Shown in pieces: positions 8,031 to 28,560 of a stretch of DNA of 64,000 nt. The translations under genes and the position numbers were made by a program. The stretch covers positions 8,581 through 72,580 of the forward strand of contig JABDAH010000002.1 in the NCBI GenBank assembly GCA_013289265.1, given 5' to 3'. Within the stretch, counting starts at the first letter, position 1, and every line of letters begins with the position of its first letter. This DNA comes from Alphaproteobacteria bacterium (GTDB lineage Bacteria > Pseudomonadota > Alphaproteobacteria > UBA9219). The notes below the pieces were generated by a model. That model was not told where the DNA came from. It ran no database searches and worked only from the letters and a program-made list of their open reading frames with translations.

Positions 8031-8034
8031 GATA

Positions 8035-9965: not shown

Positions 9966-11378
9966 TTAGGAGACCAAAGTTGAGATGGATGAGTTCGTCA
10001 TACAGTGCACGGCGCCAGCGGCAGAACTAAAAGATCCTTCGGGTAATCCGATATCTTCCGGCGCCACAACCTGCTTACCGATTTTGCCGAAGATGCTTCG
10101 AACCTCATTATTGGCAAATGGTGAAATGAGAACATTTCCGAAACGGGTAAGATTGAGTGGGTAAGCAAGTGCGGCTTCGCTGTCTTTAAGTGCGCTCACA
10201 TTTTGGGTGCCATAGACTCTTTTTATTATTTCAAGAGTTAATGTGGCGGTTGCCGAAGGATAGATTGCCACAGCTCCATCCACAACCGTCATCATCGTAT
10301 CGAGGTCATAAAATTGTATGCCGGTTGGTCGTTCTTCAATAATCTCGCCACCTTCTCGAACACGGACCTCTCCGACAACACTAATATTACCCGGGGCAAT
10401 CAATGGAACAGGTATGACTATTGTTTTAGGGGTTGGCCGAGGCATGGCGGCTTCGAGACTAGCTAATCTTAGCAAATCACGAGGCTCCGTAATAATACCA
10501 CCCACAAACAAAACATCTTTTGTTTCGTCATAGATCATATTGCCGCCACTAATACGACCATTTATTTCTTGAAAATCGTAACCATCTTGAGCCAATCGGT
10601 TTTTAAAATTTTTTCCTAAAGCAGCACCAACCTCTGCACTGTCTCTAAATGGATCTGTAGGAACATCAAAGCGCCCCATATAAATCGTATTGTCGATGAT
10701 CAGACCGCAATCGCGCGTAAATTTCAATTTTGCATAGGGAGTATGAATGCCATTGCTATTAGCTAAAGCGAGAACATCAGCATCCGGTTCGATGACCTTG
10801 ACTTCAGCGCCGAGATGCCCGAGCAAATTTTTCAGCGCGAGCCAACCCGTCGTTTCACGAATTTGTCGTTTCCATGATGCCGCCGGTTTTTCCTCTCCGG
10901 GAAATGCCCCGAAAAATGGGTTTTGAGTTCGGGCGATAAAAAAATTTTCAGGCAGTCCCATATAGAAAGTGGCCGACGCGTCTGACTGTCGGGGGACACG
11001 TGTAAAATCAGGTTTTTTTATCGATCTTTGCAATTCGATATTCAAAGCAGCAGCATAACCTTTGAACATGCCATCACGCGCTTCCGCTATACGGTCGGGA
11101 TATTTGCTTTGCATGATCTCCTCGAGAGCGGGAAGGATGACGGCTTGAACGTCCTTATGCAATGCGGTAGGCGAATGACTTAAAACGGTGTCGTGAACCT
11201 GAGATATGCAAAAGACTGCAATGTCCTCAACAATGTGACAGTCACGAAGCGCGATTTCTCGCATACGAGACGTGTAATTCACGAGCCGCGCTACAAAAGC
11301 TGTGGTGTCGAGAGAGAAGCTATTTCCATTTTCTTCAAACGGAAGAGCAAAATTGGGTAATAAGCTATCCGAGTTCAT
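9966..11378 (-). CDS. Hypothetical 470-aa protein, possibly a guanidino-group-modifying (pentein / arginine-deiminase-like) fold
   Basis: Long uninterrupted ORF. The C-terminal ..SSAAGAVHCMTNSS resembles the catalytic small-residue-H-C-M-T motif found close to the C-terminus of arginine deiminase-type enzymes. An internal GGNMIYDETKDVLFVGG resembles a GGD-type strand. Confidence 0.4.
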   Translation of the reverse strand: MNSDSLLPNFALPFEENGNSFSLDTTAFVARLVNYTSRMREIALRDCHIVEDIAVFCISQVHDTVLSHSPTALHKDVQAVILPALEEIMQSKYPDRIAEARDGMFKGYAAALNIELQRSIKKPDFTRVPRQSDASATFYMGLPENFFIARTQNPFFGAFPGEEKPAASWKRQIRETTGWLALKNLLGHLGAEVKVIEPDADVLALANSNGIHTPYAKLKFTRDCGLIIDNTIYMGRFDVPTDPFRDSAEVGAALGKNFKNRLAQDGYDFQEINGRISGGNMIYDETKDVLFVGGIITEPRDLLRLASLEAAMPRPTPKTIVIPVPLIAPGNISVVGEVRVREGGEIIEERPTGIQFYDLDTMMTVVDGAVAIYPSATATLTLEIIKRVYGTQNVSALKDSEAALAYPLNLTRFGNVLISPFANNEVRSIFGKIGKQVVAPEDIGLPEGSFSSAAGAVHCMTNSSISTLVS

Positions 11379-11649: not shown

Positions 11650-12294
11650 TTATAATCCAGCTACTTTTATATATTGGCTAGCTCTTTCGGCGGCTCGCCA
11701 TTGAAGAAGACTGCCGCCGGGAGCGCTTTGTGCAACTTGCAGGGCTGAGCCCAAAGCAAATTGAGGAATACACCCATAAAATCTGTCCTCCAGTTTAGCC
11801 CAGAGAGTGACCGCACGTTCTTCTTCTGGACTGCCGGGCTTCAACGATACACTGACATAGGCCAGCATATTACGCATATTTGTTTCTTCCGAAGGCGAAT
11901 ATGTCGGCGGTAATTTTAAGAATGCTGCTTCAAATTTCAGCAGTATATGTTCAGAAATTTTCCACAGAGCTTCTTGGGCTTCAGGCACATGATCTGCATA
12001 TTTTTTTGCAGCCAGAATTACAAATGTTTCCCCAATTAGGGGGATGGAATCGTCCAAGAATTTTTCCACTAAATCGTTGACAACCTTTTTGCGGCAAACT
12101 TCTTCCGTCGCTTCAGGTTGGGCACTACGTGCGGCGGCCAGACGTTTTTCCCAATCTTCCCGGTAAGCAGGCGAAGGCGTTTCGACAAGAAAGGCAGGCG
12201 CCGCAACTGGTGCGGTGTCTTTAGAAGTAGCTTTTGAAGGCCTAAAGCGAGCGAAAAGGGTTTTGCCTCTACGAAATAAATTATTCATATTCAA
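11650..12294 (-). CDS. Hypothetical 214-aa protein
   Basis: ORF with ATG start, same strand as 9966-11378, no recognised motif. Confidence 0.5.
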   Translation of the reverse strand: MNMNNLFRRGKTLFARFRPSKATSKDTAPVAAPAFLVETPSPAYREDWEKRLAAARSAQPEATEEVCRKKVVNDLVEKFLDDSIPLIGETFVILAAKKYADHVPEAQEALWKISEHILLKFEAAFLKLPPTYSPSEETNMRNMLAYVSVSLKPGSPEEERAVTLWAKLEDRFYGCIPQFALGSALQVAQSAPGGSLLQWRAAERASQYIKVAGL

Positions 12295-12808: not shown

Positions 12809-13041
12809 TCATTTTCTCCAGTCGAGTTTGGCGAGTCTCGGTCGTCAAACTCAACTGCTGAATTTGCATTCGGAGAATTTTGACGTCATCAACGCTAGTT
12901 TTGGATGGACAGGAACAATCAGAGAAAATGGCTTGATGTGAATGCTCCCAAATCCCCCGCAATGAGGGCATAGTGGCGGCACATTCTCTGAAAGCCTGAA
13001 AGGCTTCAGACTTAATGGCGGAGGAGATGAGATTCGAACTC
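12809..13041. repeat. Copy B of the 233-bp imperfect direct repeat (overlaps the 3' end of the intact tRNA-Ser)
   Basis: See copy A. It contains a hairpin (gaagcctttcaggcttc on the minus strand) just downstream of the tRNA. That hairpin is degraded in copy A. Confidence 0.85.
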
Positions 13042-13108
13042 ACGATACGGGTTTACCCCGTATAACGGTTTAGCAAACCGCCGCCTTCAGCCACTCGGCC
13101 ACCCCTCC
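13016..13108 (-). tRNA. tRNA-Ser (anticodon GCU), CCA encoded
   Basis: Reverse complement reads GGAGGGGTGGCCGAGTGGCTGAAGGCGGCGGTTTGCTAAACCGTTATACGGGGTAAACCCGTATCGTGAGTTCGAATCTCATCTCCTCCGCCA. It has a long variable arm, a GTTCGAATC T-loop and GCT in the anticodon loop. Confidence 0.95.
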
Positions 13109-13508: not shown

Positions 13509-13664
13509 ATGGTTGAATTTGATTCATTAGAAGATTGCCTGACCGAGCTTCCACCAGTTGTTGTTGACTTGATCGCATGGGGCAAGAAAAAGCAGGCGAG
13601 CATCCATGATGCGAGCACCAGCGCAATGCTCGATGAAATTTTGGACGAAGCCATCGGTGCCTAA
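13509..13664 (+). CDS. Possible small acidic protein (51 aa) upstream of the pilus-like operon
   Basis: GGAGGA lies 4 nt before ATG. Sequence MVEFDSLEDCLTELPPVVVDLIAWGKKKQASIHDASTSAMLDEILDEAIGA*. It is below the track's length cut-off. Confidence 0.3.
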   Translation: MVEFDSLEDCLTELPPVVVDLIAWGKKKQASIHDASTSAMLDEILDEAIGA

Positions 13665-13813: not shown

Positions 13814-15646
13814 ATGAAGCGTCGTCGCTTCTTCACATTTTTGCCGATGCTTTTGGCAATGGTTTTACTGTCGTCTTGTGCCGATCTGAGCACGAGCGAG
13901 ATTGACCCTGCAGGGCATCTAAAACGCAACGACTATCTGGCGCTGCGCGACCGCGAAGATCAGGCGGAAGAAAATCAGCAACAAGCTCTGGTTCCACCTA
14001 TCCCAGATATGCCTTCGGAAATTGCGACGCCGCCCGCGCCGTTGCTCGGTAACGGTAAACGCGTCAGCGTGACGGTGACGGACAGTGTCCCCGTCCGTGA
14101 TGTGCTGATCGAATTAGCGCGCGAAGCCAAAGTAAATCTGGAACTCGACCCACGCGTGCAAGGCGGCATCATTTTTTCGGCCCACGACCAACCTTTTGAT
14201 CAGGTCCTGAAAAGAATCTGCGCGCTGGCGGGCCTGCGCTACAAAGTCGATGACAATTATATCCATATAGAAATGGACGAACCTTATCAAAAAACTTACC
14301 ACCTGGATTACCTCAGCCTGTCACGCAAAACCACGAACGAAACATCGATCGCCACCAATGTGTTCGATGTAGATGTCGCCGGCAATTCCAATGGTGGCAC
14401 AAATGGTGGAAGCAGCAGCGGCTCCAGCGCGACACAAAATAACTCGACATCCAAGATCACCGGCGCGTCGGATGCTGATTTTTGGGTCGAGGTCGAAAAA
14501 TCCATTACGCAAATCCTGAATTCAAATGCGCACAAAACCGACAAGGCAACAACCGCTGCTAATTTCAGCCTTGATAAACAGGCAGGCATGGTCACCGTTT
14601 ACGGCGATGAGCAACAACAAAAAGCTATCGACGCGTATTTCCATCAGCTTAAGCGAAAAGCCTATGCGCAGGTCCTGATCGATGCCCGCATCATCGAAGT
14701 CGAGCTGAACGATGAGTTTAAGAGTGGTATTAACTGGCGCACGCTTTTTAACGGCGCCCTGAATGCGGCAGCGCGTTTTGGCCCCGGTGCCATCGGCGCG
14801 CCTTTTGCAACGGCCACAACAGCGACAGACGGCGTCTTTACCGCCTCACTGAATGATAAGGACTTCGCCGGTATTCTTAATCTCGTGCGCACTTTCGGCA
14901 CAACACGCGTGTTGTCGTCGCCGAGGCTAACGGTTTTAAACAACCAAACCGCGGTACTGAAGGTAGCCACTAATCAAGTCTACTTCATTACGCAAGCGCA
15001 GTTCACAACTGTAACGAATGCCAGTGGTTCTGCAGTTACCACGACGCCAGTTTATACCAGCACACCACATACAGTGCCTGTAGGTTTGGTGATGACGGTA
15101 CAGCCAGCGATCGATGCCGATCATGACCGCGTCACGATGACACTCCGCCCCACTATTTCCCGCGTTGTCAGCCAAGTCAGCGATCCGTCGATTGGTTTGA
15201 ACGCAGCCACATCCGGCGTCGCCTCATCAGTGCAGTCACAAATTCCGGTGCTTGCAGTGCGCGAAATGGATTCTGTTATTCAACTACATTCGGGCGAAGT
15301 CGCCATCATGGGCGGCTTGATGCAGGATAGTTCGCAAAATACTGACTCCGGCGTACCGGGATTGGACACATTGCCGGGTATCGGCGCTTTAGCCAAATCG
15401 CGCGACAATAACGGCACGACGACCGAACTGGTGATTTTACTGCGCGCCACTATTGCGGATAGTCCTGCGCCGGATGCCGCGGACGGCGATTTATATCATC
15501 ACTTCAATAACGACCCGCGACCGATAGCCGTGCCGGTCAGCCTGCCAAAATTACCGCCTTTGTCCAAGCTTCCTCCAGACCCGTTGCAGGAGGCCGACGC
15601 GCCGCCCATCCCCGATACCGACACTTTTCCCAATCCACATAAATAA
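13814..15646 (+). CDS. Secretin (GspD/PilQ superfamily), lipoprotein type, MshL-like
   Basis: Signal peptide with lipobox (LLSSC|ADL). C-terminal secretin domain (TRVLSSPRLTVLNNQTAVLKV..IPVLAVREMDSVIQLHSGEVAIMGGL..PGLDTLPGIG..TELVILLRA). Pro-rich tail. Confidence 0.85.
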   Translation: MKRRRFFTFLPMLLAMVLLSSCADLSTSEIDPAGHLKRNDYLALRDREDQAEENQQQALVPPIPDMPSEIATPPAPLLGNGKRVSVTVTDSVPVRDVLIELAREAKVNLELDPRVQGGIIFSAHDQPFDQVLKRICALAGLRYKVDDNYIHIEMDEPYQKTYHLDYLSLSRKTTNETSIATNVFDVDVAGNSNGGTNGGSSSGSSATQNNSTSKITGASDADFWVEVEKSITQILNSNAHKTDKATTAANFSLDKQAGMVTVYGDEQQQKAIDAYFHQLKRKAYAQVLIDARIIEVELNDEFKSGINWRTLFNGALNAAARFGPGAIGAPFATATTATDGVFTASLNDKDFAGILNLVRTFGTTRVLSSPRLTVLNNQTAVLKVATNQVYFITQAQFTTVTNASGSAVTTTPVYTSTPHTVPVGLVMTVQPAIDADHDRVTMTLRPTISRVVSQVSDPSIGLNAATSGVASSVQSQIPVLAVREMDSVIQLHSGEVAIMGGLMQDSSQNTDSGVPGLDTLPGIGALAKSRDNNGTTTELVILLRATIADSPAPDAADGDLYHHFNNDPRPIAVPVSLPKLPPLSKLPPDPLQEADAPPIPDTDTFPNPHK

Positions 15647-15655
15647 GGAGATGTC

Positions 15656-16306
15656 ATGAGAAACTTACGTGCCAATCGCCAGGGCTTTACATTGGTAGAG
15701 TTGTCCATCGTCCTCGTTATTATCGGCCTGATTATAGGCGCGGTCCTGACGGGCCAGCAGATCATCCAGAATGCGCGTGTGACCAGCGCCCTGAATACCA
15801 TTCAAGCCTATGAAGCCCAGTTCCAGACTTATGTGCAGAATTACGGCGCGATGCCGGGCGATGATGCCAATGCGCAGAACCGCTTCCCTGGTACCACGAT
15901 CGATCATCACGGCGACGGCAGTGGGTCCCTGGACGGCGGCGGATTTGATTCAACCACGGCAACTGATGAAACAGTCTTTATCTGGACGCATCTACGAGCC
16001 GCGGGTTTAGTTAAAAACCAGATTTCGAATTCATCAACCGGGGTTCAACCGCCAAACCCTTTCAATGGCATCTACGGTTTTCAGACCGGCGCCTTCAAAG
16101 GCGCTTTCACCACTACCGTTTTGTGTATGGATAAAGTTCCGGCTTCTGCAGCCGAAGCCATCGACTCCCGTCTTGATGACGGCGCCAGCGATTCAGGCAG
16201 TGTCAGGGCAATGGCCTATACCGGCAATCCCGGTGTTGTGAATACCACTGCAGTTGCGAATAGTTACGGCGACGCACAAACATTCACGCTTTGCATCCGG
16301 ATGTAG
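15656..16306 (+). CDS. Type IV pilin / pseudopilin with prepilin-type N-terminal cleavage/methylation domain
   Basis: MRNLRANRQG|FTLVELSIVLVIIGLIIGAV has the G|F cleavage site and Glu at +5. Two Cys near the C-terminus could form a disulfide loop. Confidence 0.85.
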   Translation: MRNLRANRQGFTLVELSIVLVIIGLIIGAVLTGQQIIQNARVTSALNTIQAYEAQFQTYVQNYGAMPGDDANAQNRFPGTTIDHHGDGSGSLDGGGFDSTTATDETVFIWTHLRAAGLVKNQISNSSTGVQPPNPFNGIYGFQTGAFKGAFTTTVLCMDKVPASAAEAIDSRLDDGASDSGSVRAMAYTGNPGVVNTTAVANSYGDAQTFTLCIRM

Positions 16307-16313
16307 GAACCGC

Positions 16314-17192
16314 ATGCGCAAGCGCGGCTTCACTCTGGTGGAAATGGCGGTGGTGATTGTCATCATCAGTATACTGATCCTGACCATTTTCCCGGCAATG
16401 ACCGCGCTACGTAGCAGCAGTCAACGTCCCCTGACGCAGAGCAACCTGCAAGCCTTGATGCGTGCGACCGCAGCCTATGTTCAGGCTAATGGTTGCCTTC
16501 CCTGCCCGATGCCAGCGAACGCCACGGGTACAGGTTTCGGTCGCGTGCGTGGCGATGTGAATTCGGCGACGATACCTTGCTCCGAAAAAACATCCCCCTG
16601 CTCTGTCGCCGAAGGTCTGCCGCCTTACGCATCACTTGGGCTTCCAGCTTCGACCGCGCATGACGGCTGGGGGCATTGGATCAGCATGCGCGTCGATCCC
16701 GTTTTGACGGCTGACTTTGGCGTTGCGCCACCGACATTGCCCTGCACCGACGACGATCTGCAAACCGGCAAGGTTACACCCACTTGTGAAACAAAGGGAA
16801 TGAGCCAAAAAGGGCTATGTCAAAAAGGTTTAAACAAAGGGTTGAATAACGCCAACAGTATCATCGTACAAAGCCCCAGCGGCGATATCACACCGCCCAG
16901 CCAGCAGGCCGCCGTTATTTTTATCAGCTATGGCACAACAGGTTTCGGTTCTTTCTTCAATACGGTTCAGCCGAATTCCAACAATGGTTTTCGCTTACCG
17001 ATCCCCTCTACGGTTCCTGACTGCACAAATAAAACCGGCTTTTCCCGCTGTAACGCTGATGGTAATGCAACATATATCGACGCGCCTGCCGCAATGGATG
17101 GACCAGACCCTTATGACGACATGCTTGCCTATGCCGATCGTAATACGCTGGTCAGTATGTTCGGCAATGGCAGCTGCCAGACGGGGTGGTGA
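16314..17192 (+). CDS. Second prepilin-type protein, large and Cys-rich
   Basis: MRKRG|FTLVEMAVVIVIISILILTIF from the ATG at 16314; the track start at 16254 would overlap the first pilin. Ten Cys in the mature part. Confidence 0.8.
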   Translation: MRKRGFTLVEMAVVIVIISILILTIFPAMTALRSSSQRPLTQSNLQALMRATAAYVQANGCLPCPMPANATGTGFGRVRGDVNSATIPCSEKTSPCSVAEGLPPYASLGLPASTAHDGWGHWISMRVDPVLTADFGVAPPTLPCTDDDLQTGKVTPTCETKGMSQKGLCQKGLNKGLNNANSIIVQSPSGDITPPSQQAAVIFISYGTTGFGSFFNTVQPNSNNGFRLPIPSTVPDCTNKTGFSRCNADGNATYIDAPAAMDGPDPYDDMLAYADRNTLVSMFGNGSCQTGW

Positions 17193-18916
17193 TGGCACAA
17201 ATCCTCGCATTCCAGACAGGGGCTGACGGCGAGGAAATCACTTCCCGCGCCCCCAGCCGTATCGGCGAAAAACTTTTACAATCTGGCCTTATTACTCCCG
17301 ATCATTTGCAAATCGCGCTGCATGAACAGCGGCGCAGCGGCACAATGCTCGGTTCTATTCTGGTTCGGCTCGGTTTTTTAAAAGAAGAAAAACTCGCCAA
17401 CATTCTGGCCGAGCGCACCGGCTATAAAAATATCGATCTGAAAAAGGCGTTGATTGATCCTGACCTGATGGCGATGCTGCCCAAGGCAGTGGCAGAGCGG
17501 TGCCGCGCTGTACCTATTAGCCTCCTCTTCAATCAACTCGAAATTGCAATGGCCGATCCCTATGACGTCGTCGCGATGGATGAGTTGAGCCGCTATTTCC
17601 CACGTTCGGTCGATATAGTTCCCTGCGTCGCGCCTGCGAGCGATATCAGCGATATTATCCAGCATTACAGCGGTTTTACGACATCGCTGGACAGCATTTT
17701 ACAGGAACTGGAAACTGGGGAAGATAGTGCCGCAACGACCGAGAACTGGCAGCATCCCATTGTTCGACTGGTCAATACGATTTTGTTTGATGCCGTGAAG
17801 CGCGGCGCGTCGGATATTCATCTGGAGCCGGAAACAAATTTCATCCGTATGCGTTACCGTATCGACGGGGTATTGCAGCAGGTACGCTCGCTGCATCGTT
17901 CGCACTGGCCGGAGCTGTCGCACCGTCTGAAAATTATGGCAGGCATGAACATCGCCGATACACGCAGCCTGCAGGACGGTCGCTTTAATATGCAGGTAGG
18001 AGGTGCCGATATCGATTTCCGCATGGCTGTGATGCCGACGGCGCAAGGCGAGAATATCGTCATTCGCGTGCTTGATCACCGCAATGCTTTGCTGCCGTTG
18101 GAACAACTCGGCTTTCACGGCGAGGCGTTACAGGAACTGCTTAAAATTCTGGACCGGCCCGAAGGTATTGTCCTCGTTACCGGTCCTACAGGCTGCGGAA
18201 AAACCACGACGCTTTATTCGATGCTGAATAAAATCAGCACGCCAGAAGTCAATATCATGACCCTGGAAGACCCGATCGAATATCAGTTCAATTTGATCCG
18301 CCAGACTTCGGTACAGGAACAGCAGGGACTAGGTTTTGCCGAAGGGGTGCGCGGCATTTTGCGCCAAGACCCCAATATTATCTTCATCGGCGAAGTGCGC
18401 GATGGTGAGACAGCGCAGATGGCCTTGCGCGCCGCTATGACGGGACATCAGGTTTTTTCCACCCTGCATTGTAACGATGCGCTGGGTGCTTTACCGCGTC
18501 TCATTGATCTTGGCCTGCATCCACGCATGCTGTCCGGCAACATCACAGGCGTTATTGCACAGCGTTTAGTCCGCAAACTTTGTCCGCATTGCCACGTGAC
18601 GAGACTCGCAACGGTGGATGAATGCGCCATACTGCAGTGCGACGATGCGCAACCGCCAATAATCGCGGAAGCTGCAGGTTGCGCCCATTGCCATCATATC
18701 GGCTATCGCGGTCGCATCGCCATTTCGGAAATTTTGCGCCTGACACCTGAACTGGACGAACTCATTGCCATCGATGCGCCGCGTAGCGCCATGCAAAAGC
18801 AGATAGCCGCAACGGGTTTTCGCAACATGCGGCAGGACGGTGTTGCCAAGGTACTGGCACATACCATAAGCCTAGCCGAACTACGCCGCAGCGTTGATAT
18901 GACGAGGATGAACTGA
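17192..18916 (+). CDS. GspE/PilB-family assembly ATPase with an MshEN-type N-terminal domain
   Basis: Walker A (GPTGCGKTTT). Tetracysteine motif (CPHC..CAHC). Tandem RxGxxLLxxGLIxxxxLxxxLxxQ-type motifs near the N-terminus. The ATG overlaps the upstream stop (TGATG). Confidence 0.9.
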   Translation: MAQILAFQTGADGEEITSRAPSRIGEKLLQSGLITPDHLQIALHEQRRSGTMLGSILVRLGFLKEEKLANILAERTGYKNIDLKKALIDPDLMAMLPKAVAERCRAVPISLLFNQLEIAMADPYDVVAMDELSRYFPRSVDIVPCVAPASDISDIIQHYSGFTTSLDSILQELETGEDSAATTENWQHPIVRLVNTILFDAVKRGASDIHLEPETNFIRMRYRIDGVLQQVRSLHRSHWPELSHRLKIMAGMNIADTRSLQDGRFNMQVGGADIDFRMAVMPTAQGENIVIRVLDHRNALLPLEQLGFHGEALQELLKILDRPEGIVLVTGPTGCGKTTTLYSMLNKISTPEVNIMTLEDPIEYQFNLIRQTSVQEQQGLGFAEGVRGILRQDPNIIFIGEVRDGETAQMALRAAMTGHQVFSTLHCNDALGALPRLIDLGLHPRMLSGNITGVIAQRLVRKLCPHCHVTRLATVDECAILQCDDAQPPIIAEAAGCAHCHHIGYRGRIAISEILRLTPELDELIAIDAPRSAMQKQIAATGFRNMRQDGVAKVLAHTISLAELRRSVDMTRMN

Positions 18917-20121
18917 TGCCCGCTTATAGTTATCGCGCGGTTCATACATCGGGTATCATCGCGCGCGGTGACAGGCAGGCAGCGAACGAGTCTGAATTGG
19001 CACAGCATCTAACATTTTCTGGGCTGGAATTAATTGACGCCCGGATTAAAAAAGAAAATCGCACAGCCTTGCGATTACGGCGCCTGCCACCACGGAAATT
19101 GGCCGTTTTCTGCACCCAGATGGAAGATATGCTGAAAGCAGGCGTTTCTTTCACCGACGGCCTACGTGAAATTACGGTCAGTGAAGACAACCGTCTGCTG
19201 CGCGATACTCTCACCGATATTTTGCAGGACATCAATCACGGTACGCGCATTGCTAAAGCTTTCGCCACTTATGATCGCCTCTTCCCGCCCGTCTTTATCG
19301 CCATTTTACAATCTGGCGAGATCAGCGGCGATCTGCATGAAACTTTCGCGCAGCTCACCCGCTACGCCGAAAGCCGCGCCAAGACGACGGAACAACTGCA
19401 CCGCGCATTACGATACCCACTATTTCTAATGCTGGTCGCTTTTGGCGTTGTCAGTTTCATGATGGTAATGGTTGTGCCGAAAGTAACCAGTTTCCTCAAT
19501 ACTATCGATAGTCAATTGCCATTGATGACTCGCATATTAATCACAGCTTCCGATGTGTTTGCTGAATTATGGTGGCGGTTGCTGGTAGTCTTGCCCCTCT
19601 TCGGCCTGATTACCGCCTTCCTCTATAAAAATTCGGAAAGAACTGCGCAAACTATCGACAGCTTACTGCTGCGCCTGCCATTGCTTGGCAATATCATTCA
19701 CAAATTGGCGCTGGCGCGTTTCGCGCATAGCTTTGCCATTTTATTTCAAAGTGGCATCGGCATTGTTGCCAGCCTGCGCAGCGCCAAGGTCACGCTTAGC
19801 AACCACGCATTGGAAGCCATCATGGATGATGTCGTGCGGCAGGTGCAGGCCGGGCAATCCCTATCGCTTGCCATGACGGGTACGCTGCCAAGCTTTGCCA
19901 TCCGCATGATCCGTACCGGGGAGCGCAGCGGCAAAATGCATAAAAGCCTGAACGATATCGCTACCGCCTATGACCGCGAAGTAACGGATGTTACCCAACG
20001 CGTTATCGGCATGCTGGAACCTGCACTTACCATAATGATCGGCGGTATTCTGGCCTGGGTCGTGCTGGCGGTACTCGGCCCGATTTACAGCTCAATTGGC
20101 AAAATTACGGGGGGATATTAA
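18916..20121 (+). CDS. GspF/PilC-family inner-membrane platform protein
   Basis: 401 aa with duplicated T2SSF-type regions and three TM blocks. The start overlaps the upstream stop. Confidence 0.85.
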   Translation: MPAYSYRAVHTSGIIARGDRQAANESELAQHLTFSGLELIDARIKKENRTALRLRRLPPRKLAVFCTQMEDMLKAGVSFTDGLREITVSEDNRLLRDTLTDILQDINHGTRIAKAFATYDRLFPPVFIAILQSGEISGDLHETFAQLTRYAESRAKTTEQLHRALRYPLFLMLVAFGVVSFMMVMVVPKVTSFLNTIDSQLPLMTRILITASDVFAELWWRLLVVLPLFGLITAFLYKNSERTAQTIDSLLLRLPLLGNIIHKLALARFAHSFAILFQSGIGIVASLRSAKVTLSNHALEAIMDDVVRQVQAGQSLSLAMTGTLPSFAIRMIRTGERSGKMHKSLNDIATAYDREVTDVTQRVIGMLEPALTIMIGGILAWVVLAVLGPIYSSIGKITGGY

Positions 20122-21614
20122 TGGCCATCATCCCTTTGCAGAAATCAAAATTTATCCTGATGATTGGTGACGACGGAGTGCTGTGCGTTCCCTATGACGT
20201 GGCTGCCGTGAAAGAACCTATTTTCGCAGCACATACGGATGAGGCCGCCATTCACTCTGTGACTATCTTACTGGCAAAGCATCCCAAAATTCCGGTAATT
20301 TTGCTGGCGGATATGCTAGCGCAGGATTTCCGGCCTGAAACTCTTCCCCGCTTAAGTCTTCTGGACCGACCTAAACTTATTCAACGTCGCCTGAAGCAGG
20401 CTTTTCCACAAGCACGACTTACAGCCAGTTACACTCTTAAATCCAGCCGCACGAAAATTGTTATGGTCGGACTACAGGATGAAAGCCCCCTATTCGATTG
20501 GTTGGAAAGAGCAAAATCACATCTGCCACGTATCGGCTTATTGCCATTGGAAGTGGCCAACCTTGTAATGCGTCTGCTGCCGGATGCTAAAGATAGTTGG
20601 GCGATGCTGCTAAGCCAGCAACGCACCGGGGGCTTTCGTCAGATTGTGACGCATAAAGGCGAGCTAATTTTTACGCGTCTGACAGCGCCACTTTCAGACG
20701 GCGCAAGCGGGGATGAAATTGTTGCCGCGCTTCAACGCGATATTAAAGCCAGCCTTGGTTATCTCGGTCGCCTTGGCCTTAGCGACACTAACCAGCTGCG
20801 CATTTTCCTACTCCTGTCCGATGCTTTGCACGAGGCGGGGGGAAATCTCGGCTTGCCTGTGCATTCCGTTACTTGCGTATCGCCGCACAAGACCGCAAAG
20901 CATCTGCGCCTGCCTTTTATTCCCAATGCGACAGATCCTTATAGCGACCTGCTTTACGCAGGATATGTCGCGCGAAAACGACGACTGACATTGCCCTTGA
21001 TGTTGCCTGACATGAAAATTGTGCGGAATAACATGCTCATCAAACAAGGCGGCATGCGTGTAGCCACGGCGGCAATGCTACTGGCGCTCAGCCTCACAGG
21101 TTGGCATGCCGTTGGGCTGATTAAAACTTTTGCACAAACACAAGGGGAAGCGCTGCAACTGGTGCATTTGCAAAATCAATTGGCGCAGGCGCAACAAACT
21201 GCCGCACCTCTCACTGAACCTTTGGGCAGGCTACGGCAAGCTATCGAACGGCAACGGCTATTCTCGGAACAAACCGCTACTCCGTGGCAGATGCTTTCTG
21301 CACTCGGCAACAATCTTGGTACCGAGACGCGACTAACCAAGTTCGATTGGCAAAATGATAGTGATGATGCTTCGCACGAAGTTTTGCATGCGGAACTTAA
21401 GCTAAACGCTCCCTCAGAACCACAAGACCGCGAGCAAATAATCAATCAGTTCAGGCAAGTGGCACAAAATCTAAACCAGCTGATGCCCGATTATGTTGTG
21501 AGTGTGGAGCATTACCCCTTTCCCGCCACGCCGAGTGAAAGCGTCAGCAACAATACCGCAGATAGCAAAAATGCTGCCCCAGTAGCCGAAATTACAATCA
21601 GGAGAAAGCCATGA
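20121..21614 (+). CDS. Hypothetical bitopic membrane protein; GspL-like or fused PilM/PilN-like role inferred from architecture only
   Basis: About 300 aa cytoplasmic part, one TM (VATAAMLLALSLTGWHAVGLI), then a coiled-coil periplasmic part. Start and stop overlap the neighbouring genes. Confidence 0.4.
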   Translation: MAIIPLQKSKFILMIGDDGVLCVPYDVAAVKEPIFAAHTDEAAIHSVTILLAKHPKIPVILLADMLAQDFRPETLPRLSLLDRPKLIQRRLKQAFPQARLTASYTLKSSRTKIVMVGLQDESPLFDWLERAKSHLPRIGLLPLEVANLVMRLLPDAKDSWAMLLSQQRTGGFRQIVTHKGELIFTRLTAPLSDGASGDEIVAALQRDIKASLGYLGRLGLSDTNQLRIFLLLSDALHEAGGNLGLPVHSVTCVSPHKTAKHLRLPFIPNATDPYSDLLYAGYVARKRRLTLPLMLPDMKIVRNNMLIKQGGMRVATAAMLLALSLTGWHAVGLIKTFAQTQGEALQLVHLQNQLAQAQQTAAPLTEPLGRLRQAIERQRLFSEQTATPWQMLSALGNNLGTETRLTKFDWQNDSDDASHEVLHAELKLNAPSEPQDREQIINQFRQVAQNLNQLMPDYVVSVEHYPFPATPSESVSNNTADSKNAAPVAEITIRRKP

Positions 21615-22225
21615 CCAAACTGCAATGGCATTATTTCTGGCTGCACCGTTTTTGGATCATTCTGCTTGCGATTTCCATTACCCTGATAACGACCAGTTCG
21701 CCGCTGTTGCGCGTAGCAGAAGAAAAAACATCGGCAAATTTGGCGCACATCAAAACGCAACGCGTGCAAGCCGAGCAGACGCTCCGTCAACTACAGGATG
21801 ATGTCGCCGCTGCCCAGAAGCTTGGGACACAAATGACGCTGTCAGAGGCAGAGCAATTTCTCACCCCCGTTGATCGTTTACTTGCTGCCAATGAGCTAGA
21901 ACATGAAGCGGCAGTTTCACATATCCAGCATTTCGATTATACGCTGGCACCAGAACAGCGCATGAAAAAGAGCAGCACACTTGCCGAACCACAGGAGCTT
22001 TTTGTCAGTACCGTTACAATCAGCGGCGAAGCACCGAGCGATATCGATATCTACCGCTTCATTTCTCGCATGCCCCTCGCCTTACCAGGGAAGTTAAGGC
22101 TGCAACAATTGTCGCTTGACCGCATGAGTAAGGAAAGCGCTGTCAGTACGTATAACGTGCGCTTTAATGCGACGCTGGAGTGGCTGTCGAATGGCACAAC
22201 GCAAGATGTGGCAGGTGGGTTGTGA
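21611..22225 (+). CDS. Hypothetical N-terminally anchored protein; GspM/PilO-like role inferred from position only
   Basis: N-terminal TM (FWIILLAISITLITT), then a coiled coil. ATGA overlap with the upstream gene. Confidence 0.35.
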   Translation: MTKLQWHYFWLHRFWIILLAISITLITTSSPLLRVAEEKTSANLAHIKTQRVQAEQTLRQLQDDVAAAQKLGTQMTLSEAEQFLTPVDRLLAANELEHEAAVSHIQHFDYTLAPEQRMKKSSTLAEPQELFVSTVTISGEAPSDIDIYRFISRMPLALPGKLRLQQLSLDRMSKESAVSTYNVRFNATLEWLSNGTTQDVAGGL

Positions 22226-22269
22226 GCAACCCAGTTTGTAAAATCCTGCAAACATGTATGCGATGGAGT

Positions 22270-22376
22270 TCCCCTCCCCTCGCGGGGAGGGCTAGGGGTG
22301 GGGGCCATCCATTACTCCAAATGTTCGGATCGCGGAGCTCCCCCCTCCCTAGCCCTCCCCGCAAGGGGGAGGGAAT
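22270..22376. repeat. G/C-rich palindromic repeat element (two hairpins), same family as 33580-33708
   Basis: Hairpins ccctcccc-tcgc-ggggaggg and ccctcccc-gcaa-ggggaggg. The 36-mer ccccctccctagccctccccgcaagggggagggaat (22341-22376) differs at one position from 33673-33708. Confidence 0.85.
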
Positions 22377-22767
22377 CGCAGCAGCACTTATTGCAGTATT
22401 GTTGTGCACTTCCGTGCACGCCACAGAATCCGAAGCCCTACCCAAAACCTCACTGTTCTTTTCGGAAGATGAAACAAGGCAGATTGAGGTGTTGTCCGCC
22501 AAAATAAAGCCGCCCAAAAATGATGGGAGCGGCATACATTTGGGTGCTGTTATTTATTATGGCCCGGAAAATTGGACCCTATGGCTACAAGGAGCCAAGT
22601 GGACTCCAGCAACGGACCGCCCTGACTTGCATGTCGTCAGCGTCACACCGAGTAACGTACAGTTAAGTTGGCAGCGCAATGCCAAAGCACCGCTGCAAGA
22701 AATTACCCTGCACCCCTATCAAACCTACCATATTATGAGTGGGCGCGTGGTCGAAGGTCTGCGTTAG
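22321..22767 (+). CDS. Hypothetical secreted protein, last gene of the pilus-like operon (start uncertain: 22258 or 22321)
   Basis: From the ATG at 22321 the sequence MFGSRSSPLPSPPRKGEGIAAALIAVLLCTSVHA|TE is a plausible signal peptide. The start codon and n-region lie inside the repeat element. Confidence 0.5.
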   Translation: MFGSRSSPLPSPPRKGEGIAAALIAVLLCTSVHATESEALPKTSLFFSEDETRQIEVLSAKIKPPKNDGSGIHLGAVIYYGPENWTLWLQGAKWTPATDRPDLHVVSVTPSNVQLSWQRNAKAPLQEITLHPYQTYHIMSGRVVEGLR

Positions 22768-23942
22768 CGGTCGCTCGCTACAGACATTTCCAAATAAGCT
22801 AGCCTCTGGCGAATGGTGGGCAGCGAGATAGACAAATGCGTTGGATCATCCTCGTTCATGGCGGCGCGCAGCACTTGCCGGTAAAGCGTCGCGGCATCGG
22901 CACGATATCCGGCACGGTCGTACAGCACCGCCAGATCCAGACGATAGAGGATATTATCGGGCTGGATCTTGATGGCGTTATTCAGGTGATTATAAGCCTT
23001 CTCATAATAACCACGCCGTGCTTCCAGTTTTGCCAGCGCCGCTTGCGCCGCTGCATCATGCGGGTTGGCCGCAACCTTTTGTTCTAATTCGGTCATAGCG
23101 GCAGGCAAAAAAGATTGCCCTAATGCCGTCACCAGATTGGCACGCAGGGCGTTATTATCCGGGTCCAACTGCACCAAACGATGGCCGATTTCGACAGCTT
23201 GTTCCGCTTGCCCCGTATGCTGAAGCGCAAACATTTTGCCTTCTAACGCGGTATTATTATTTTTGTCGCGCTTGAGAACCTGGTCATACAGCGCCAAGGC
23301 GGCCTGATCATCACCAGCGACCAGCAACCTGTGCGCCTCGGCCAGAAGCTGTTCGGCAGTCAGGGCACGTTCGGCATGAAAGCGCACATTCTGAATGGAG
23401 GATTGAGCAGAAACCGATTCATGCTTCACCTCATGCAAAGCCGGTAAGTCACTGAGATCCTGGGCAACTACATTAATAGCCGGCGCACTTTCCGGCGCAG
23501 GGGCAATTGTATTTGGATCTTCGTTTGGGTTCTCCTGTGACAGGCTTTCTGCAGGCAGAACAATGTCATTATAGGTTTCGCCTTTTGGTGGCGGCAATTC
23601 CGATACGGGGGTCTCCATAGCCACCTTTTCCGGAAGTGGCAGCTTTTCCGCTACCTTCTGCAGTTTATCGTCATGTTCCAGTTTGACGATAATTTTTGCG
23701 GCAACGGGTTTTGTCTCGATCGTTTGCTCAACCGAGGCAGTCGTTAGGGATTTTTTATCCTTACTTTCCCATAAAGCGATTGCCGACATCGTCGCAATGG
23801 AGGTGAGCAAAATAATAACTGCTGAACGAAAGACAAATTGATGGTTTTGCGCCTGCGTAACAAATGTTACGGCGCGAGGCTTGCCCGGTTTGGGGCGAAA
23901 ATCGTTTGCTGCGCTTTGCAGCTTTTTTAGCAAGGCGGCCAT
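22764..23942 (-). CDS. TPR-repeat protein with an N-terminal membrane anchor (MshN-like by context)
   Basis: TM (VIILLTSIATMSAIALW), then an acidic linker. The C-terminal half is made of TPR-like repeats (ALALYDQVLKRDKNN..AVEIGHRLVQLDPDN..AYNHLNNAIKIQPDN..). Convergent with the operon, with a 4-nt overlap. Confidence 0.7.
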   Translation of the reverse strand: MAALLKKLQSAANDFRPKPGKPRAVTFVTQAQNHQFVFRSAVIILLTSIATMSAIALWESKDKKSLTTASVEQTIETKPVAAKIIVKLEHDDKLQKVAEKLPLPEKVAMETPVSELPPPKGETYNDIVLPAESLSQENPNEDPNTIAPAPESAPAINVVAQDLSDLPALHEVKHESVSAQSSIQNVRFHAERALTAEQLLAEAHRLLVAGDDQAALALYDQVLKRDKNNNTALEGKMFALQHTGQAEQAVEIGHRLVQLDPDNNALRANLVTALGQSFLPAAMTELEQKVAANPHDAAAQAALAKLEARRGYYEKAYNHLNNAIKIQPDNILYRLDLAVLYDRAGYRADAATLYRQVLRAAMNEDDPTHLSISLPTIRQRLAYLEMSVASDR

Positions 23943-24222: not shown

Positions 24223-25950
24223 ATGAATATCTATGCACTTTTGCAGTTTGTTGCCTTTGCCGCCGTTAGTGTTGGCCTGATGCTGCCACTTGGCATCTAT
24301 ATGGCCAAGGTTTTTAATGGCGAAGCCACATGGGCGGGTAAAGTTCTGGGACCTATCGAAGGACTGTCTTACCGCCTCTGCGGCGTTCGCGGAGCCGAAC
24401 AGCAAAACTGGGCGCAATATGCTGGCGCAGTCATTATCTTTAATGCGCTAGGCGGCGCGGTTTTGTTTTTGATTTTGATGCATCAGGATCAACTGCCATG
24501 GAACCCCCAAGGCCTGCCGGGCCTGCCTTATGATCTCGCTTTCAATATAGCGGTCAGTTTTGTCACCAACACAAACTGGCAATCTTACGGGGGCGAGACA
24601 ACGCTGAGTTATTTCAGCCAGATGCTAGGCCTCACAGTGCAAAACTTCATGGCCGCTGCGACGGGCTTTGCCGTTGCCGTCGCTATGGTGCGCGGCTTTA
24701 CCCATAAGGAAAATCCCGGCCTCGGCAATTTCTATGTCGATGTCACGCGCGCCATTTTTTATGTCCTGTTACCGCTCTCCTTGCTCTTTGCACTGTTCCT
24801 GATATGGCAGGGCGTGCCGGATAATCTGCAACCTTATGTGCAGGCGACCACACTGGAAGGCACACAGCAAACCATTGCCCAAGGCCCCGTTGCGAGCCAA
24901 ATCGCCATTAAGATGCTAGGCTCCAACGGCGGCGGTTATTTTAACGCCAACGCCGCACATCCCTATGAAAACCCAACGCCGCTGAGCAACTTTTTCCAAC
25001 TGATTAGCATTCTGCTACTCAGCATCGGTTTGATCGCCGCTTTTGGCAAAATGGTCGGTGACAGACGGCAGGCGTGGGCGCTTCTTGCGAGCATGACGAT
25101 CCTGTTCATGATCCTGCTGGGACTTTGTTATTTCTCCGAAGCCAATGGCAATCCGGCTTTTGGGCATCTGAATATAGATCAGATAATCAGCGACACGAAT
25201 TCCGGCGGCAATATGGAAGGCAAGGAAGTCCGTTTCGGTATCTTCAATTCGGCGCTATGGGCAACAACGACCTCCGCTACGTCCAATGGCTCCGTCAACG
25301 CTATGCATGACAGCTTTATGCCGCTTGGCGGTCTTGTGCCTCTCTTTAACATGCTAGTGGGCGAAGTCATTTATGGCGGCGTCGGCTGCGGGCTATACGG
25401 TATTTTGCTTTATGTCCTGATTACCGTCTTTATTGCCGGACTTATGGTTGGCCGCACGCCGGAATATCTTGGCAAGAAGATTGAAGCGCATGAGATCAAA
25501 CTCGCGGTCATTGCGCAGCTGCTCTACCCCATCTGCGTGCTTGGCTTTGGCGTTGTTTCCTTGCTGGTACCGCTGGGTGCAAGTTCCATGAGCGCAACCG
25601 GCCCGCACGGTCTGACGCAAACCATTTATGCCTACGCATCGGCCGCTGCCAACAACGGCTCTGCCTTTGCTGGCTTTAATGGCAATACCGTCTTTCAGAA
25701 TATCATGCTTGGAATCGTTATGCTGATCGGCCGCTACGGCGTGATTATTCCGGTACTGGCGATTGCAGGCTCGCTCGCCGCCAAGAAAATCACCCCGCCA
25801 TCAAGCGGTACTTTCCCAACGCATGGGCTGATGTTCGTAGTCTTACTGACTGCCGTCATCGTCATGTTTGGCGGTCTGACCTATTTTCCGGCTCTGGCGC
25901 TTGGCCCAGTGGCCGAGCACTTATCTCTTTTTCAAAGTGTCGCCCCATGA
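24223..25950 (+). CDS. kdpA: K+-transporting ATPase subunit A
   Basis: 575-aa polytopic protein with KdpA-typical segments ([22 protein letters not shown]). First large gene of the kdp operon. Confidence 0.95.
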
Positions 25951-27983
25951 GTAAAACCACCGAACATCGCCCCCTGTTTTCGCTTGCCTTGCTGCGTGAT
26001 GCGACTATCGGCGCCTTTATCAAGCTGAATCCGGAGAAGTTAATTCGCAATCCGGTGATGTTTACCGTCGGCGTGACCAGCGCGATGGCATCACTTATCA
26101 CCCTTTGCGAAGCTGCTACCGGCAAATCTTACAGCTTTAGCTTGCAGATTGCGCTGTGGCTGTGGTTCACCGTTTTGTTCGGCAACTTTGCCGAAGCCGT
26201 TGCCGAAGGACGCGGTAAAGCCCAAGCCGACAGTTTGCGCAAAACCAAGACTGATACGACGGCCAAGAAAGTTGACAGTATCGGCGCGAAAGATTTCACA
26301 CCTGTAGCAGCAACCACCCTGCGCCGCGGCGATTTAATTGTGGCGGAAGCAGGCGATATTATTCCCGGCGACGGCGACGTCGTTCACGGCATCGCCACCG
26401 TCGACGAATCCTCCATCACCGGTGAATCGGCACCCGTTATCCGTGAATCCGGCGGCGACCGTTCGGCTGTAACCGGCGGTACGCGTATTGTTTCCGACCG
26501 TATCATCGTTGAAATTCGCGCCAACCCCGGCGAGTCCTTCCTTGACCGTATGATCGGCCTTGTCGAAGGCGCCAAGCGTCAGAAAACGCCGAATGAAATC
26601 GCGCTAACTATCCTGCTGGTAGGGCTTACACTGATTTTCCTGATTGTATGTGTTACGCTGCAGGGACTAGCCGCCTATTCCGGCAAAATGGTTCCGGTGA
26701 TCTATCTGATCGCTTTGTTTATTACCTTAATTCCCACCACCATAGGTGGCTTGCTATCTGCTATTGGTATTGCGGGCATGGACCGTCTGGTGAATTTTAA
26801 TGTTATCGCCAAATCCGGGCGGGCGGTCGAAGCCGCTGGCGATATTGACGTTCTGCTGCTTGATAAAACCGGCACCATTACTCTCGGCAACCGTATGGCC
26901 AGTGAGTTCATTGCCGTCGGCGGTGCAACCGAAGAAAGCCTGGCCGAAGCGGCAATGGTATCGTCGCTAACTGATGATACGCCCGAAGGCAAATCTATCG
27001 TTCGCCTTGCTGAAGACCGCTTCAAATGGAACGGCGGCGCGCGCCATAAGCCTGATATGAATTTCGTCCCTTTCAGCGCCCACACGCGCATGAGCGGCGT
27101 TGATTTTGGCGAGACTTCCATCCGCAAGGGCGCACCGGATTCCATCCTTTATATGTGCGGCACCAGCGGCAGCGTCGAAATTACGCGCGCGATTGAACGC
27201 GTCGCCAAAACCGGCGGTACGCCTTTGCTGGTCGCACTCAATAAACGAATTTTGGGCGTCGTTCATCTAAAAGATATCATCAAGCCCGGCATCCATGAAC
27301 GTTTCATGACTTTGCGCCGCATGGGGATTCGTACCGTTATGATTACCGGCGATAATCCCTTAACCGCAGCCGCCATTGCCGCCGAAGCGGGTGTCGATGA
27401 TTTTCTCGCCGAAGCCTCCCCCGAAAAGAAACTCGCCCTCATTCGAAGCGAGCAAGCCAAAGGTAAACTGATCGCCATGTGCGGCGACGGATCTAACGAT
27501 GCTCCCGCTCTCGCACAGGCCGATGTGGGTGTAGCGATGAATACCGGTACGATGGCCGCGCGTGAAGCGGGCAACATGATCGATCTTGATTCCGATCCGA
27601 CCAAACTGATTGAAGTCGTCATGATCGGCAAACAGCTATTGATGAGCCGCGGAGCGCTCACGACATTCTCCATCGCCAACGATGTCGCCAAATATTTCGC
27701 CATCATCCCGGCTTTGTTTATCGGTATCTATCCGAGCATGAATGCGCTCAATGTCATGCATCTGCACAGTCCCAAGAGCGCGGTTCTTTCAGCGATTATT
27801 TTTAACGCCTTAATCCTGATTGCGCTGGTGCCGCTAGCCCTTAAAGGCGTGAAGTATCAACCGGCCTCCGCCAGCACCATTCTGCGCCGCAATCTGTTGA
27901 TTTACGGGTTTGGGGGCATCATTGTGCCCTTTATTGCCATCAAGCTGCTTGATATGCTCATCAGCCAAACCATGGGTATCTAG
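25947..27983 (+). CDS. kdpB: K+-transporting P-type ATPase subunit B
   Basis: P-type ATPase motifs DKTGTIT, MITGDN and [14 protein letters not shown] overlap with kdpA. Confidence 0.95.
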
Positions 27984-27984
27984 T

Positions 27985-28560
27985 ATGTTCCGTGAATTGC
28001 GATCCAGCGTTAGCCTGTTTATCCTGTTCTTTGTCCTGACGGGTCTTGGCTATCCGTTCCTGACATTGATCCTCGGCCAGCAACTGTTCCCCCATCAAGC
28101 TAATGGCAGTCTGATTGAGACTAATGGAAAAATCATCGGCTCCAGCCTGATTGGCCAAAACTTCGCAGGTGCGGGCTATTTTCATGGCCGACCATCGGCA
28201 GCAGGAAATGGTTATGATGCCGGGAATTCTTCCGGCAGTAATTTGGGCCCGACGAGCGCCAACCTTCAGCAAGCTATCGAGCAGCGAGTCAATGACTTGA
28301 AAAAAGACAACAGCGTGCCAATACCCGTTGACCTTGTTACAACATCGGCCAGTGGACTTGATCCGGACATATCGCCGGACGCGGCGCAGTTCCAGGTGAG
28401 CCGCGTTGCGGCAGCACGACAATTAACCCTCGATCAAATTCAGGACATCATCAAGCAATCCACCACATCCCGTAGCCTCGGCTTTCTGGGCGATAACCGC
28501 GTGAATGTTCTGGACCTCAACCTTGCGCTTGACCGGTTAGGCAAAACGCCAGTCCCATGA
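27985..28560 (+). CDS. kdpC: K+-transporting ATPase subunit C
   Basis: ATG at 27985 (MFRELRSSVSLFILFFVLTG..), N-terminal TM, ..TSASGLDPDISP.. motif. The longer track start overlaps kdpB. Confidence 0.9.
   Translation: MFRELRSSVSLFILFFVLTGLGYPFLTLILGQQLFPHQANGSLIETNGKIIGSSLIGQNFAGAGYFHGRPSAAGNGYDAGNSSGSNLGPTSANLQQAIEQRVNDLKKDNSVPIPVDLVTTSASGLDPDISPDAAQFQVSRVAAARQLTLDQIQDIIKQSTTSRSLGFLGDNRVNVLDLNLALDRLGKTPVP

Follow-up and report, generated by a model that had tools for sequence, protein, structure and literature searches.

Which type IV filament machine is encoded by a compact cluster of nine genes in an uncultured alphaproteobacterium, three products of which match no protein family model? 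The cluster occupies positions 13814-23942 of a 64-kb stretch of DNA (the window) from contig JABDAH010000002.1, and its genes are defined by an open reading frame (ORF) listing and by the public gene call for identical DNA (Table 1). We consider it likely that these genes encode the central parts of a machine that assembles type IV pili and belongs to the lineage that holds type IVa pili (T4aP) and mannose-sensitive haemagglutinin pili (MSHA; MSH as a class), in a diverged, MSHA-like form. We see in it a new variant, diverged in sequence, of a known kind of machine and not a new class; nothing here shows that the system as a whole is minimal.

Secretin, motor, platform and pilins

Pfam and NCBIfam searches of the locus return Secretin with Secretin_N_2, N_methyl twice, T2SSE with MshEN, and T2SSF. 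An earlier, sequence-only reading of this DNA had named a lipoprotein secretin, two prepilins with G↓FTLVE sites (the arrow marks cleavage), an ATPase and a platform protein, with a convergent tetratricopeptide repeat (TPR) protein closing the locus; the ORF listing, a motif scan and the family models bear this out, down to the membrane helix and repeat matches of the TPR protein. Its count of nine same-strand genes was one too many, since eight genes are co-directional on the plus strand and the ninth, the TPR gene, converges on them from the minus strand. The four start/stop overlaps it listed can be read directly from the sequence (TGATG at 17190-17194 and 18914-18918, TAATG at 20119-20123 and ATGA at 21611-21614), and all nine ORFs are intact. 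Coupling along the locus holds at these four junctions but not for the 148-aa gene, which is separated from the 204-aa gene by 95 nt.

The secretin matches the Pfam models Secretin (4.8e-31) and Secretin_N_2. Among NCBIfam models it ranks MshL (TIGR02519) first with 231 bits (cut-off 250), followed by GspD with 131 (cut-off 351) and PilQ (TIGR02515) with 88 (cut-off 284), so that MshL leads the next secretin model by 100 bits; none of these three cut-offs is reached, nor is that of the PilN-type IVb secretin model (89 bits, cut-off 288). As MSH yardsticks we used the loci of Aeromonas caviae (L061, an unannotated chromosome filed among plasmids) and Legionella adelaidensis (L062). The genuine Aeromonas MshL ranks the same models in the same order (MshL 279, GspD 169, PilQ 138), and the window secretin is 24-25% identical over its full length to the Aeromonas and Legionella proteins (BLASTP, E 1e-36 to 1e-37).

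The ATPase matches T2SSE (4.5e-122) and MshEN in Pfam and is 38% identical to both Aeromonas and Legionella MshE by BLASTP. It scores 484 bits on the PilB model and 489 on GspE, where Aeromonas MshE scores 526 and 524 and Legionella MshE 542 and 559. The platform protein (T2SSF, 8.5e-49) scores 297 bits on GspF and 219 on the best PilC-type model, where Aeromonas MshG scores 330 and 307; all of these ATPase and platform scores, for window and reference proteins alike, lie under the model cut-offs. The profile of the window proteins matches that of genuine MSH proteins, with MshL above GspD and PilQ, PilB about level with GspE below threshold, and GspF above PilC. This ranking across secretin, ATPase and platform backs the MSHA-like character that had been proposed for the machine, a placement drawn from model scores and pairwise similarity. 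In the Protein Data Bank (PDB) the ATPase matches Thermus PilF and then PilB proteins over the full length, followed by GspE in the C-terminal part only, and Aeromonas MshE gives an identical ranking. The platform protein is 25% identical over its full length to Aeromonas MshG (BLASTP, E 2e-45), which is family-level homology only, and it matches Myxococcus PilC in the PDB with 141 bits.

The GspE and GspF scores could also be taken to mean that the machine resembles a type II secretion system (T2SS), in which a short pseudopilus of two pilins would push folded exoproteins through the secretin, with the 497-aa protein in the place of GspL, the 204-aa protein in that of GspM and the 148-aa protein in that of a GspC reduced to its homology region (HR) domain. 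These scores do not discriminate a T2SS, since genuine MshE and MshG score alike on the same models. The ATPase is MshEN/PilB-like along its full length and has no GspE N1 domain, and GspE structures align to it only from about residue 165 on. The secretin is nearest to MshL and not GspD-like, and a motif scan and Pfam find neither a GspH-K set nor a GspC with a PDZ domain in the window. Short leaders with Phe+1 are pseudopilin-like, and a window without PilT would suit a T2SS; set against this, related loci encode PilT and PilU, which are characteristic of retractile pili, and pilin 1, with 206 mature residues and a C-terminal Cys pair, is unlike GspG. The genome paper on Micavibrio ARL-13 describes a 'functional type II secretion system' without GspC, G, H and K, which may be this locus or another, and it reports dispersed pil genes besides the T2SS (PMC3189940). 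Even with the architecture of the 497-aa protein, discussed below, counted in its favour, a T2SS-like machine seems to us an unlikely reading of the locus.

Exactly two prepilin cleavage sites, both G↓FTLVE, are found by a motif scan of all six frames of the window, which upholds the earlier statement that no GspH-K-type pseudopilin set is present. The leaders are 10 and 5 residues long, with Phe+1 and Glu5. Prepilin 1 matches N_methyl and TIGR02532 and is likely the major pilin; in the PDB it matches type IVa pilins such as PilE along the N-terminal helix and no further. Prepilin 2, whose start at 16314 agrees with the public 292-aa gene call, has an N_methyl match, is likewise restricted to the N-terminal helix in its PDB matches, and is the likely candidate for a minor, tip or initiator pilin. 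Similarity of the two pilins to MshA and MshB is weak (E 5e-5 or worse), and the arrangement of a first and a second pilin is kept in all loci of the window type. Type IVb pili (bundle-forming pilus, toxin-coregulated pilus and the R64 thin pilus) also use a lipoprotein secretin, and BfpB is among the best PDB sequence matches of the window secretin (42.6 bits). Type IVb pilins have long leaders and a residue other than Phe at +1, and we rejected assignment to this class on the two short leaders with Phe+1 and on a match of the ATPase to BfpD that is only partial (125 bits).

The N-terminus of the ATPase passes the c-di-GMP (cyclic di-GMP) motif model NF053729 (64.7 bits, cut-off 38). It consists of the 24-residue motif RIGEKLLQSGLITPDHLQIALHEQ, the five-residue spacer RRSGT and a second 24-residue motif, MLGSILVRLGFLKEEKLANILAER; the MshEN c-di-GMP site has been defined as two 24-residue motifs with a 5-residue spacer (PMC5013675). 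From this tandem motif, the ATPase is probably gated by c-di-GMP. The TPR protein has a membrane helix at about residues 36-58, matches to TPR_14, TPR_19, TPR_2 and related models over residues 200-370, and, in the TPR region, a weak match to Aeromonas MshN (28% identical across 120 aa, E 4e-4); comparison of its N-terminus with that of MshN gave no convincing common motif.

Compared with the MSHA of Vibrio and Aeromonas (mshHIJKLMNEGF and mshBACDOPQ), the locus shares a lipoprotein secretin that has MshL as its best model, an ATPase with MshEN, an MshG-like platform, a TPR protein of MshN shape and the lack of a peptidase gene. Protein sizes correspond one to one and, Aeromonas against window, are 291+197 versus 497 aa for MshI1+I2, 215 versus 204 for J, 121 versus 148 for K, 581 versus 610 for L, about 380-394 versus 392 for N, 570 versus 574 for E and 406 versus 401 for G. 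Unlike MSHA, the window has no MshM, MshF or MshH, has two pilins in place of five with no MshO, MshP or MshQ, and is ordered L-pilins-E-G-I-J-K with N convergent; its counterparts of MshI, J and K cannot be recognised by sequence as homologues of the genuine proteins, and its host is an alphaproteobacterium. In the published MSH model (TXSScan/TFF-SF; Denise et al. 2019, PMC6668835) MshM is mandatory, as are MshE, MshL and MshG. The window holds an MshE-type ATPase with MshEN and an MshG-family platform with no peptidase in the locus, and it holds neither MshM nor an MshA major pilin with a set of MshB, C, D, O, P and Q. MSH has been found only in Gamma- and Epsilonproteobacteria and Chrysiogenetes (Denise et al., PMC6668835).

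Table 1. Genes and other features of the pilus locus (window coordinates)
Feature	Position	Strand	Size and sequence features
Lipoprotein secretin, MshL-like	13814-15646	+	610 aa, lipobox LLSSC
Prepilin 1	15656-16306	+	216 aa, leader MRNLRANRQG↓FTLVE, two C-terminal Cys
Prepilin 2	16314-17192	+	292 aa, leader MRKRG↓FTLVE, Cys-rich
Extension ATPase, MshE/PilB-type	17192-18916	+	574 aa, putative N-terminal tandem c-di-GMP-binding motif
Inner-membrane platform protein, PilC/GspF/MshG family	18916-20121	+	401 aa
Bitopic alignment protein, predicted PilM-PilN-like	20121-21614	+	497 aa
Bitopic protein, predicted PilO/MshJ/GspM-like	21611-22225	+	204 aa
GC-rich palindromic insert between the 204-aa and 148-aa genes	22268-22375		inverted arms
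Secreted protein, conserved C-terminal domain	22321-22767	+	148 aa, signal-peptide-like N-terminus
Convergent bitopic TPR protein, MshN-like architecture	22764-23942	-	392 aa

Alignment proteins and the 148-aa family

The 497-, 204- and 148-aa proteins, which the sequence-only reading had found unassignable, give zero Pfam or NCBIfam matches. For the 497-aa protein about 50 homologues are detectable in a collection of 5.8 billion proteins, all of them either unnamed or labelled 'hypothetical' and none with a Pfam domain. An AlphaFold2 model built from 47 homologues (predicted local distance difference test, pLDDT, 88.6) has a cytoplasmic alpha/beta domain with a PilM/GspL-like actin fold (residues 1-290), a long helix that includes a membrane span and a coiled coil (residues 296-361), shorter helices, and a periplasmic alpha/beta domain that we read as ferredoxin/PilN-like (residues 403-495). 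Foldseek searches of the PDB with this model return PilM first (5eou, E 4.8e-10; also 3jc8_M and 2ych), next the cytoplasmic domains of PulL/GspL/EpsL (5tkw, 4pht, 1yf5), and then FtsA. By its predicted structure the protein is a PilM-PilN fusion with a membrane helix. The sole sequence link to MSH is a weak one, 32% identity over 87 aa to Aeromonas MshI1 (E 0.002 in a database of 15 sequences). An actin-like domain, a membrane helix and a periplasmic ferredoxin-like domain make up the architecture of GspL, and this, with the significant Foldseek matches to GspL-type domains, is an argument for the T2SS-like machine; a PilM-PilN fusion is the architecture of single-chain MshI as well.

The 204-aa protein has 12 homologues, and its AlphaFold2 model (pLDDT 77) can be read as a membrane helix at the N-terminus followed by a coiled coil and an alpha/beta domain of ferredoxin-like type. 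Its top Foldseek match in the PDB is Pseudomonas aeruginosa PilO (2rjz, E 3.9e-4, probability 1.0), with PilO of the Myxococcus machine model (3jc8_O) and the PilO core (5uvr) also near the top, and on this model the protein is PilO/MshJ-like. Structural comparison leads from the 497-aa protein to PilM and then GspL, and from the 204-aa protein to PilO, so both can be assigned by fold; only the 148-aa protein, unmatched by sequence, keeps the label of unassignable. The related claim that no PilM, N, O or P is recognisable is true of sequence models and gives way, by predicted structure, to PilM/N-like and PilO-like folds.

The sequences of these proteins are far from those of their MSH counterparts. 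Jackhmmer searches started from each of the three never reached genuine MSH proteins. Genuine MshI2, MshJ and MshK give weak Pfam matches (PilN, PilO and T2SSC/T2SSB), whereas the window counterparts give none, in agreement with the earlier description of the locus as compact and divergent. Compared with the T4aP of P. aeruginosa and M. xanthus (PilMNOPQ with PilB, C, T and D), the locus is similar in its structural matches to PilM and PilO, in the full-length similarity of its ATPase to PilB/PilF and of its platform to Myxococcus PilC, and in that PilD, PilT and PilU are encoded in related loci. It is unlike T4aP in that PilM and PilN are fused, the secretin is remote from PilQ, and the window has no recognisable PilP and no FimU-PilVWXE/PilY1 set.

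The 148-aa protein belongs to a larger family than its lack of annotation would suggest. An exhaustive search of cluster representatives recovered 692 of them at 50% clustering, against three matches in a word-indexed homologue search. What is conserved at its core is a C-terminal domain some 80 residues long, preceded by a signal peptide. When 48 and 62 members were run against Pfam no family recurred, NCBIfam gave no match, a profile search of PDB sequences returned chance matches only, and hhalign against MshK gave 2% probability. In about 50 related loci the gene comes after that for the PilO-like protein, and the domain occurs in natural fusions. P0102 (L064, 1277-2620, downstream of a platform gene in the contig trace) and P0172 join the 497-type cytoplasmic domain and membrane helix, through a Pro-rich linker, to the 148-type domain and have no PilN-like or PilO-like domains, and P0201 (L063, 1545-2690, downstream of a 515-aa gene in the contig trace) joins a 204-type protein to the 148-type domain. 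Because the domain is fused to both 497- and 204-type partners, the three probably belong to the same periplasmic subcomplex. Gene position and fusions together suggest that the 148-aa protein may be the PilP/MshK/GspC-HR-like link to the secretin. A membrane helix, a linker and then a domain is the layout of GspC, which P0102 and P0172 resemble, a point of likeness to the GspC/L/M platform of the T2SS. The fusion variants could be still more reduced machines or assembly artefacts.

Related loci, missing genes and genomic context

A scan with the 497-aa family, in which each species was represented by one genome, yielded 58 related loci, every one of them in a metagenome-assembled genome. Their labels are Alphaproteobacteria, Rhodospirillaceae, Micavibrio, 'Bdellovibrionales' and 'Pseudobdellovibrionaceae'; the NCBI taxonomy still files Micavibrio under Bdellovibrionales/Pseudobdellovibrionaceae. 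About 13 of the 58 have the gene order of the window with exactly two pilin genes, and in at least eight loci of this type a TPR gene lies next to the cluster and converges on it. The 497-aa protein is 35-65% identical among these same-order genomes, and recurrence of the reduced order at such divergence points to long-term purifying selection.

A second, Micavibrio-type order runs ATPase, platform, 497-, 204- and 148-type proteins, ABC-transporter ATPase, TPR protein, peptidase, two PilT/PilU-family ATPases, secretin, two membrane proteins of unrecognised family and pilin. Its peptidase matches A24_N_bact and Peptidase_A24, and its PilT/PilU proteins pass their model with 480 and 421 bits (cut-off 319); PilD and PilT lie inside the homologous loci of 14 relatives. 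A third arrangement retains the ABC ATPase and the two unrecognised membrane proteins, all three of which are absent from window-type loci. The ABC ATPase stands directly 3' of the 148-type gene (L038, 12900-13622) and the two conserved membrane proteins directly 3' of the secretin (L038, 19710-20471 and 20472-21200), in both cases likewise in L036 and about 30 other loci; together these three genes may resemble the PilGHI ABC module of the Myxococcus pil cluster. Three loci encode MshM homologues beside the TPR gene, all on the minus strand (L021, 12519-13409; L029, 8325-9191; L026, 9145-9909), with E 1e-48 to 1e-66 to Aeromonas MshM, which strengthens the MSH affinity of the clade. Two window-type loci from metagenome-assembled genomes of one study (L014, 488-3750; L015, 2384-5610) have no platform gene between the ATPase and the 497-type gene. 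The system of the clade combines an MSH-like core with T4aP-style retraction motors, and in the lineage of the window the locus is pared down.

The absence of a prepilin peptidase and of a PilT-like ATPase, claimed earlier, is upheld for the 64-kb window. Phmmer searches with PilD, PilT and PilU of the clade found no prepilin peptidase, PilT or PilU, the extension ATPase being the only match, and a search of all stop-to-stop ORFs in the window with a hidden Markov model built from 14 PilD sequences returned noise only. Phmmer with Aeromonas MshM and its Legionella homologue found no MshM in the window. In V. cholerae MSHA, PilT is encoded outside the msh cluster. All MSH loci are without a prepilin peptidase, which is presumably borrowed from another system, and T4aP systems are typically spread over several loci (Denise et al. 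2019, PMC6668835); since MSH loci regularly do without the gene, its absence here is ordinary. The missing genes are probably encoded elsewhere in the genome, because Micavibrio-type relatives have the same core beside a peptidase and PilT/PilU. The earlier description of a minimal machine suits the locus, which is compact and diverged, but not necessarily the system, as sister lineages carry PilD, PilT and PilU within the locus.

The same absences could mean that the locus is a decaying, non-functional remnant of a fuller Micavibrio-type locus, from which the genes for peptidase, PilT/PilU, the ABC module and MshM have disappeared. The palindromic insert of Table 1 would fit such decay. It consists of two inverted GC-rich arms of about 38 nt each in the region of the 95-nt gap, where it breaks the coupling of the 204-aa and 148-aa genes; its RNA fold has -86 kcal/mol (z = -6.6). 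The 148-aa gene has a single usable ATG, at 22321, which sits in the hairpin loop, and part of one arm is translated as the N-terminal region of the protein. In several relatives the coordinates of the 204-type and 148-type ORFs abut or overlap, so the insert looks like a repetitive extragenic palindrome (REP)-like or miniature inverted-repeat transposable element (MITE)-like insertion. A single-arm copy lies at 33670-33705. Intact ORFs throughout, the four tight overlaps still preserved and the recurrence of the reduced order in about 13 divergent genomes all speak against decay, which we hold to be quite improbable.

The cluster had also been suggested as possibly acquired horizontally, as it lies beside a tRNA-Ser integration hot spot. 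The adjacency is real: tRNA-Ser (13016-13108, minus strand) is 706 nt upstream of the secretin gene, and phage and recombinase genes are nearby. The 3', or integration, side of this minus-strand tRNA points away from the locus, and the mobile DNA lies on that far side. A direct repeat of about 62 nt (9130-9192 and 12980-13042) covers the tRNA-Ser 3' end and downstream bases and looks like an att (attachment) site pair. The repeats bracket a 3.8-kb insert with two ORFs that have no Pfam match (9966-11378, 470 aa; 11650-12294, 214 aa), and positions 1-9000 form a mobile or prophage-like segment of low GC content (44-47%), with genes for a ParB-N and DNA methylase fusion, a terminase large subunit, a serine recombinase and a Hypoth_Ymh protein. 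The GC content of the locus, 51-54%, equals that of the rest of the window and contrasts with 44-47% in the 13 kb upstream. In nine close relatives def-fmt-truA precedes the secretin gene or cluster, and tRNA-Ser was found at none of the 17 related loci scanned for tRNAs. Strand, GC content and synteny thus contradict an island inserted at tRNA-Ser; we rejected this origin, which is very improbable, and the proposed horizontal acquisition is unsupported. The locus appears to have been inherited vertically in an uncultured alphaproteobacterial clade that includes Micavibrio.

Other features flank the cluster. A 51-aa ORF (13509-13664, plus strand) without a Pfam match, which the public gene call for the same DNA likewise includes, lies upstream of the secretin gene. 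The kdpFABC-kdpDE potassium-transport operon (24223-32003) lies directly downstream of the TPR gene, and the adjacency of TPR gene and kdpA recurs in one relative (L004). A scan for promoter and terminator consensus sequences over 13.1-24.3 kb gave counts no higher than the shuffled expectation.

A model of the machine and its place among type IV filaments

Several observations weigh against an MSHA-like pilus machine. The secretin scores 231 bits on MshL where the cut-off is 250. The ATPase is 35-40% identical to GspE/PulE-type and PilB/T4P-type proteins alike (tblastn, plasmids), and pairwise identity cannot classify it as it is equally close to differently annotated families. The second c-di-GMP motif is off consensus at its first residue (Met for Arg) and its last (Arg for Gln). 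Alignment of the 497-, 204- and 148-aa families to Aeromonas and Legionella MshI, J and K with hhalign gave 2-10% probability, against reference profiles of two sequences each that are too thin for the values to be informative, and the 148-aa protein matches nothing by sequence. No peptidase, PilT, MshM or minor-pilin set lies within 64 kb, and the hairpin around the 148-aa start codon, with its predicted -86 kcal/mol, could impair expression.

If the MSHA-like reading holds, a hexameric MshE/PilB-type ATPase that responds to c-di-GMP would drive the PilC/MshG-type platform, which would lift the two processed pilins from the inner membrane and polymerise them, the 216-aa pilin as the likely major subunit and the Cys-rich 292-aa pilin as the likely initiator or tip. 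The 497-aa PilM-PilN fusion and the 204-aa PilO-like protein would form an inner-membrane alignment ring, to which the motor would dock through the actin-like cytoplasmic domain of the 497-aa protein. The 148-aa periplasmic protein would couple this ring to the MshL-like lipoprotein secretin, and the bitopic TPR protein may help to assemble or anchor the secretin, as proposed for MshN. Genes elsewhere in the genome would supply in trans the prepilin peptidase and, if there is one, a retraction ATPase of PilT type. In this scheme the gene identities, conservation and genomic context are observed and two folds come from predicted structures; the role of the 148-aa protein, both pilin roles, c-di-GMP control and the unlinked peptidase and PilT genes are what we infer.

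The full-text literature searches made here gave no description of this pilus system from Micavibrio or its uncultured relatives. It is conceivable, though on present evidence doubtful, that Micavibrio-related alphaproteobacteria carry a distinct, unclassified branch of type IV filaments, with MSH-like motor, platform and secretin and alignment proteins of their own that sequence models miss, namely a fused PilM-N, a PilO-like protein and a new domain linking to the secretin. Were this so, the lineage of the window may work with only two pilins and with neither a canonical minor-pilin set for initiation nor a retraction motor of its own, more reduced variants would have the PilM-like cytoplasmic domain fused straight to the linker domain, and the filament could be an attachment pilus of epibiotic predators.

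Because family models miss three of the components, automated classifiers may label loci of this kind as generic or as incomplete. The 148-aa domain, which has about 700 cluster representatives but no Pfam entry, forms a family of some size that is still uncatalogued, and it is a candidate for a new secretin-coupling module. The conserved two-pilin layout and the natural fusions make this a compact system for asking which alignment and minor-pilin parts a type IV filament needs.

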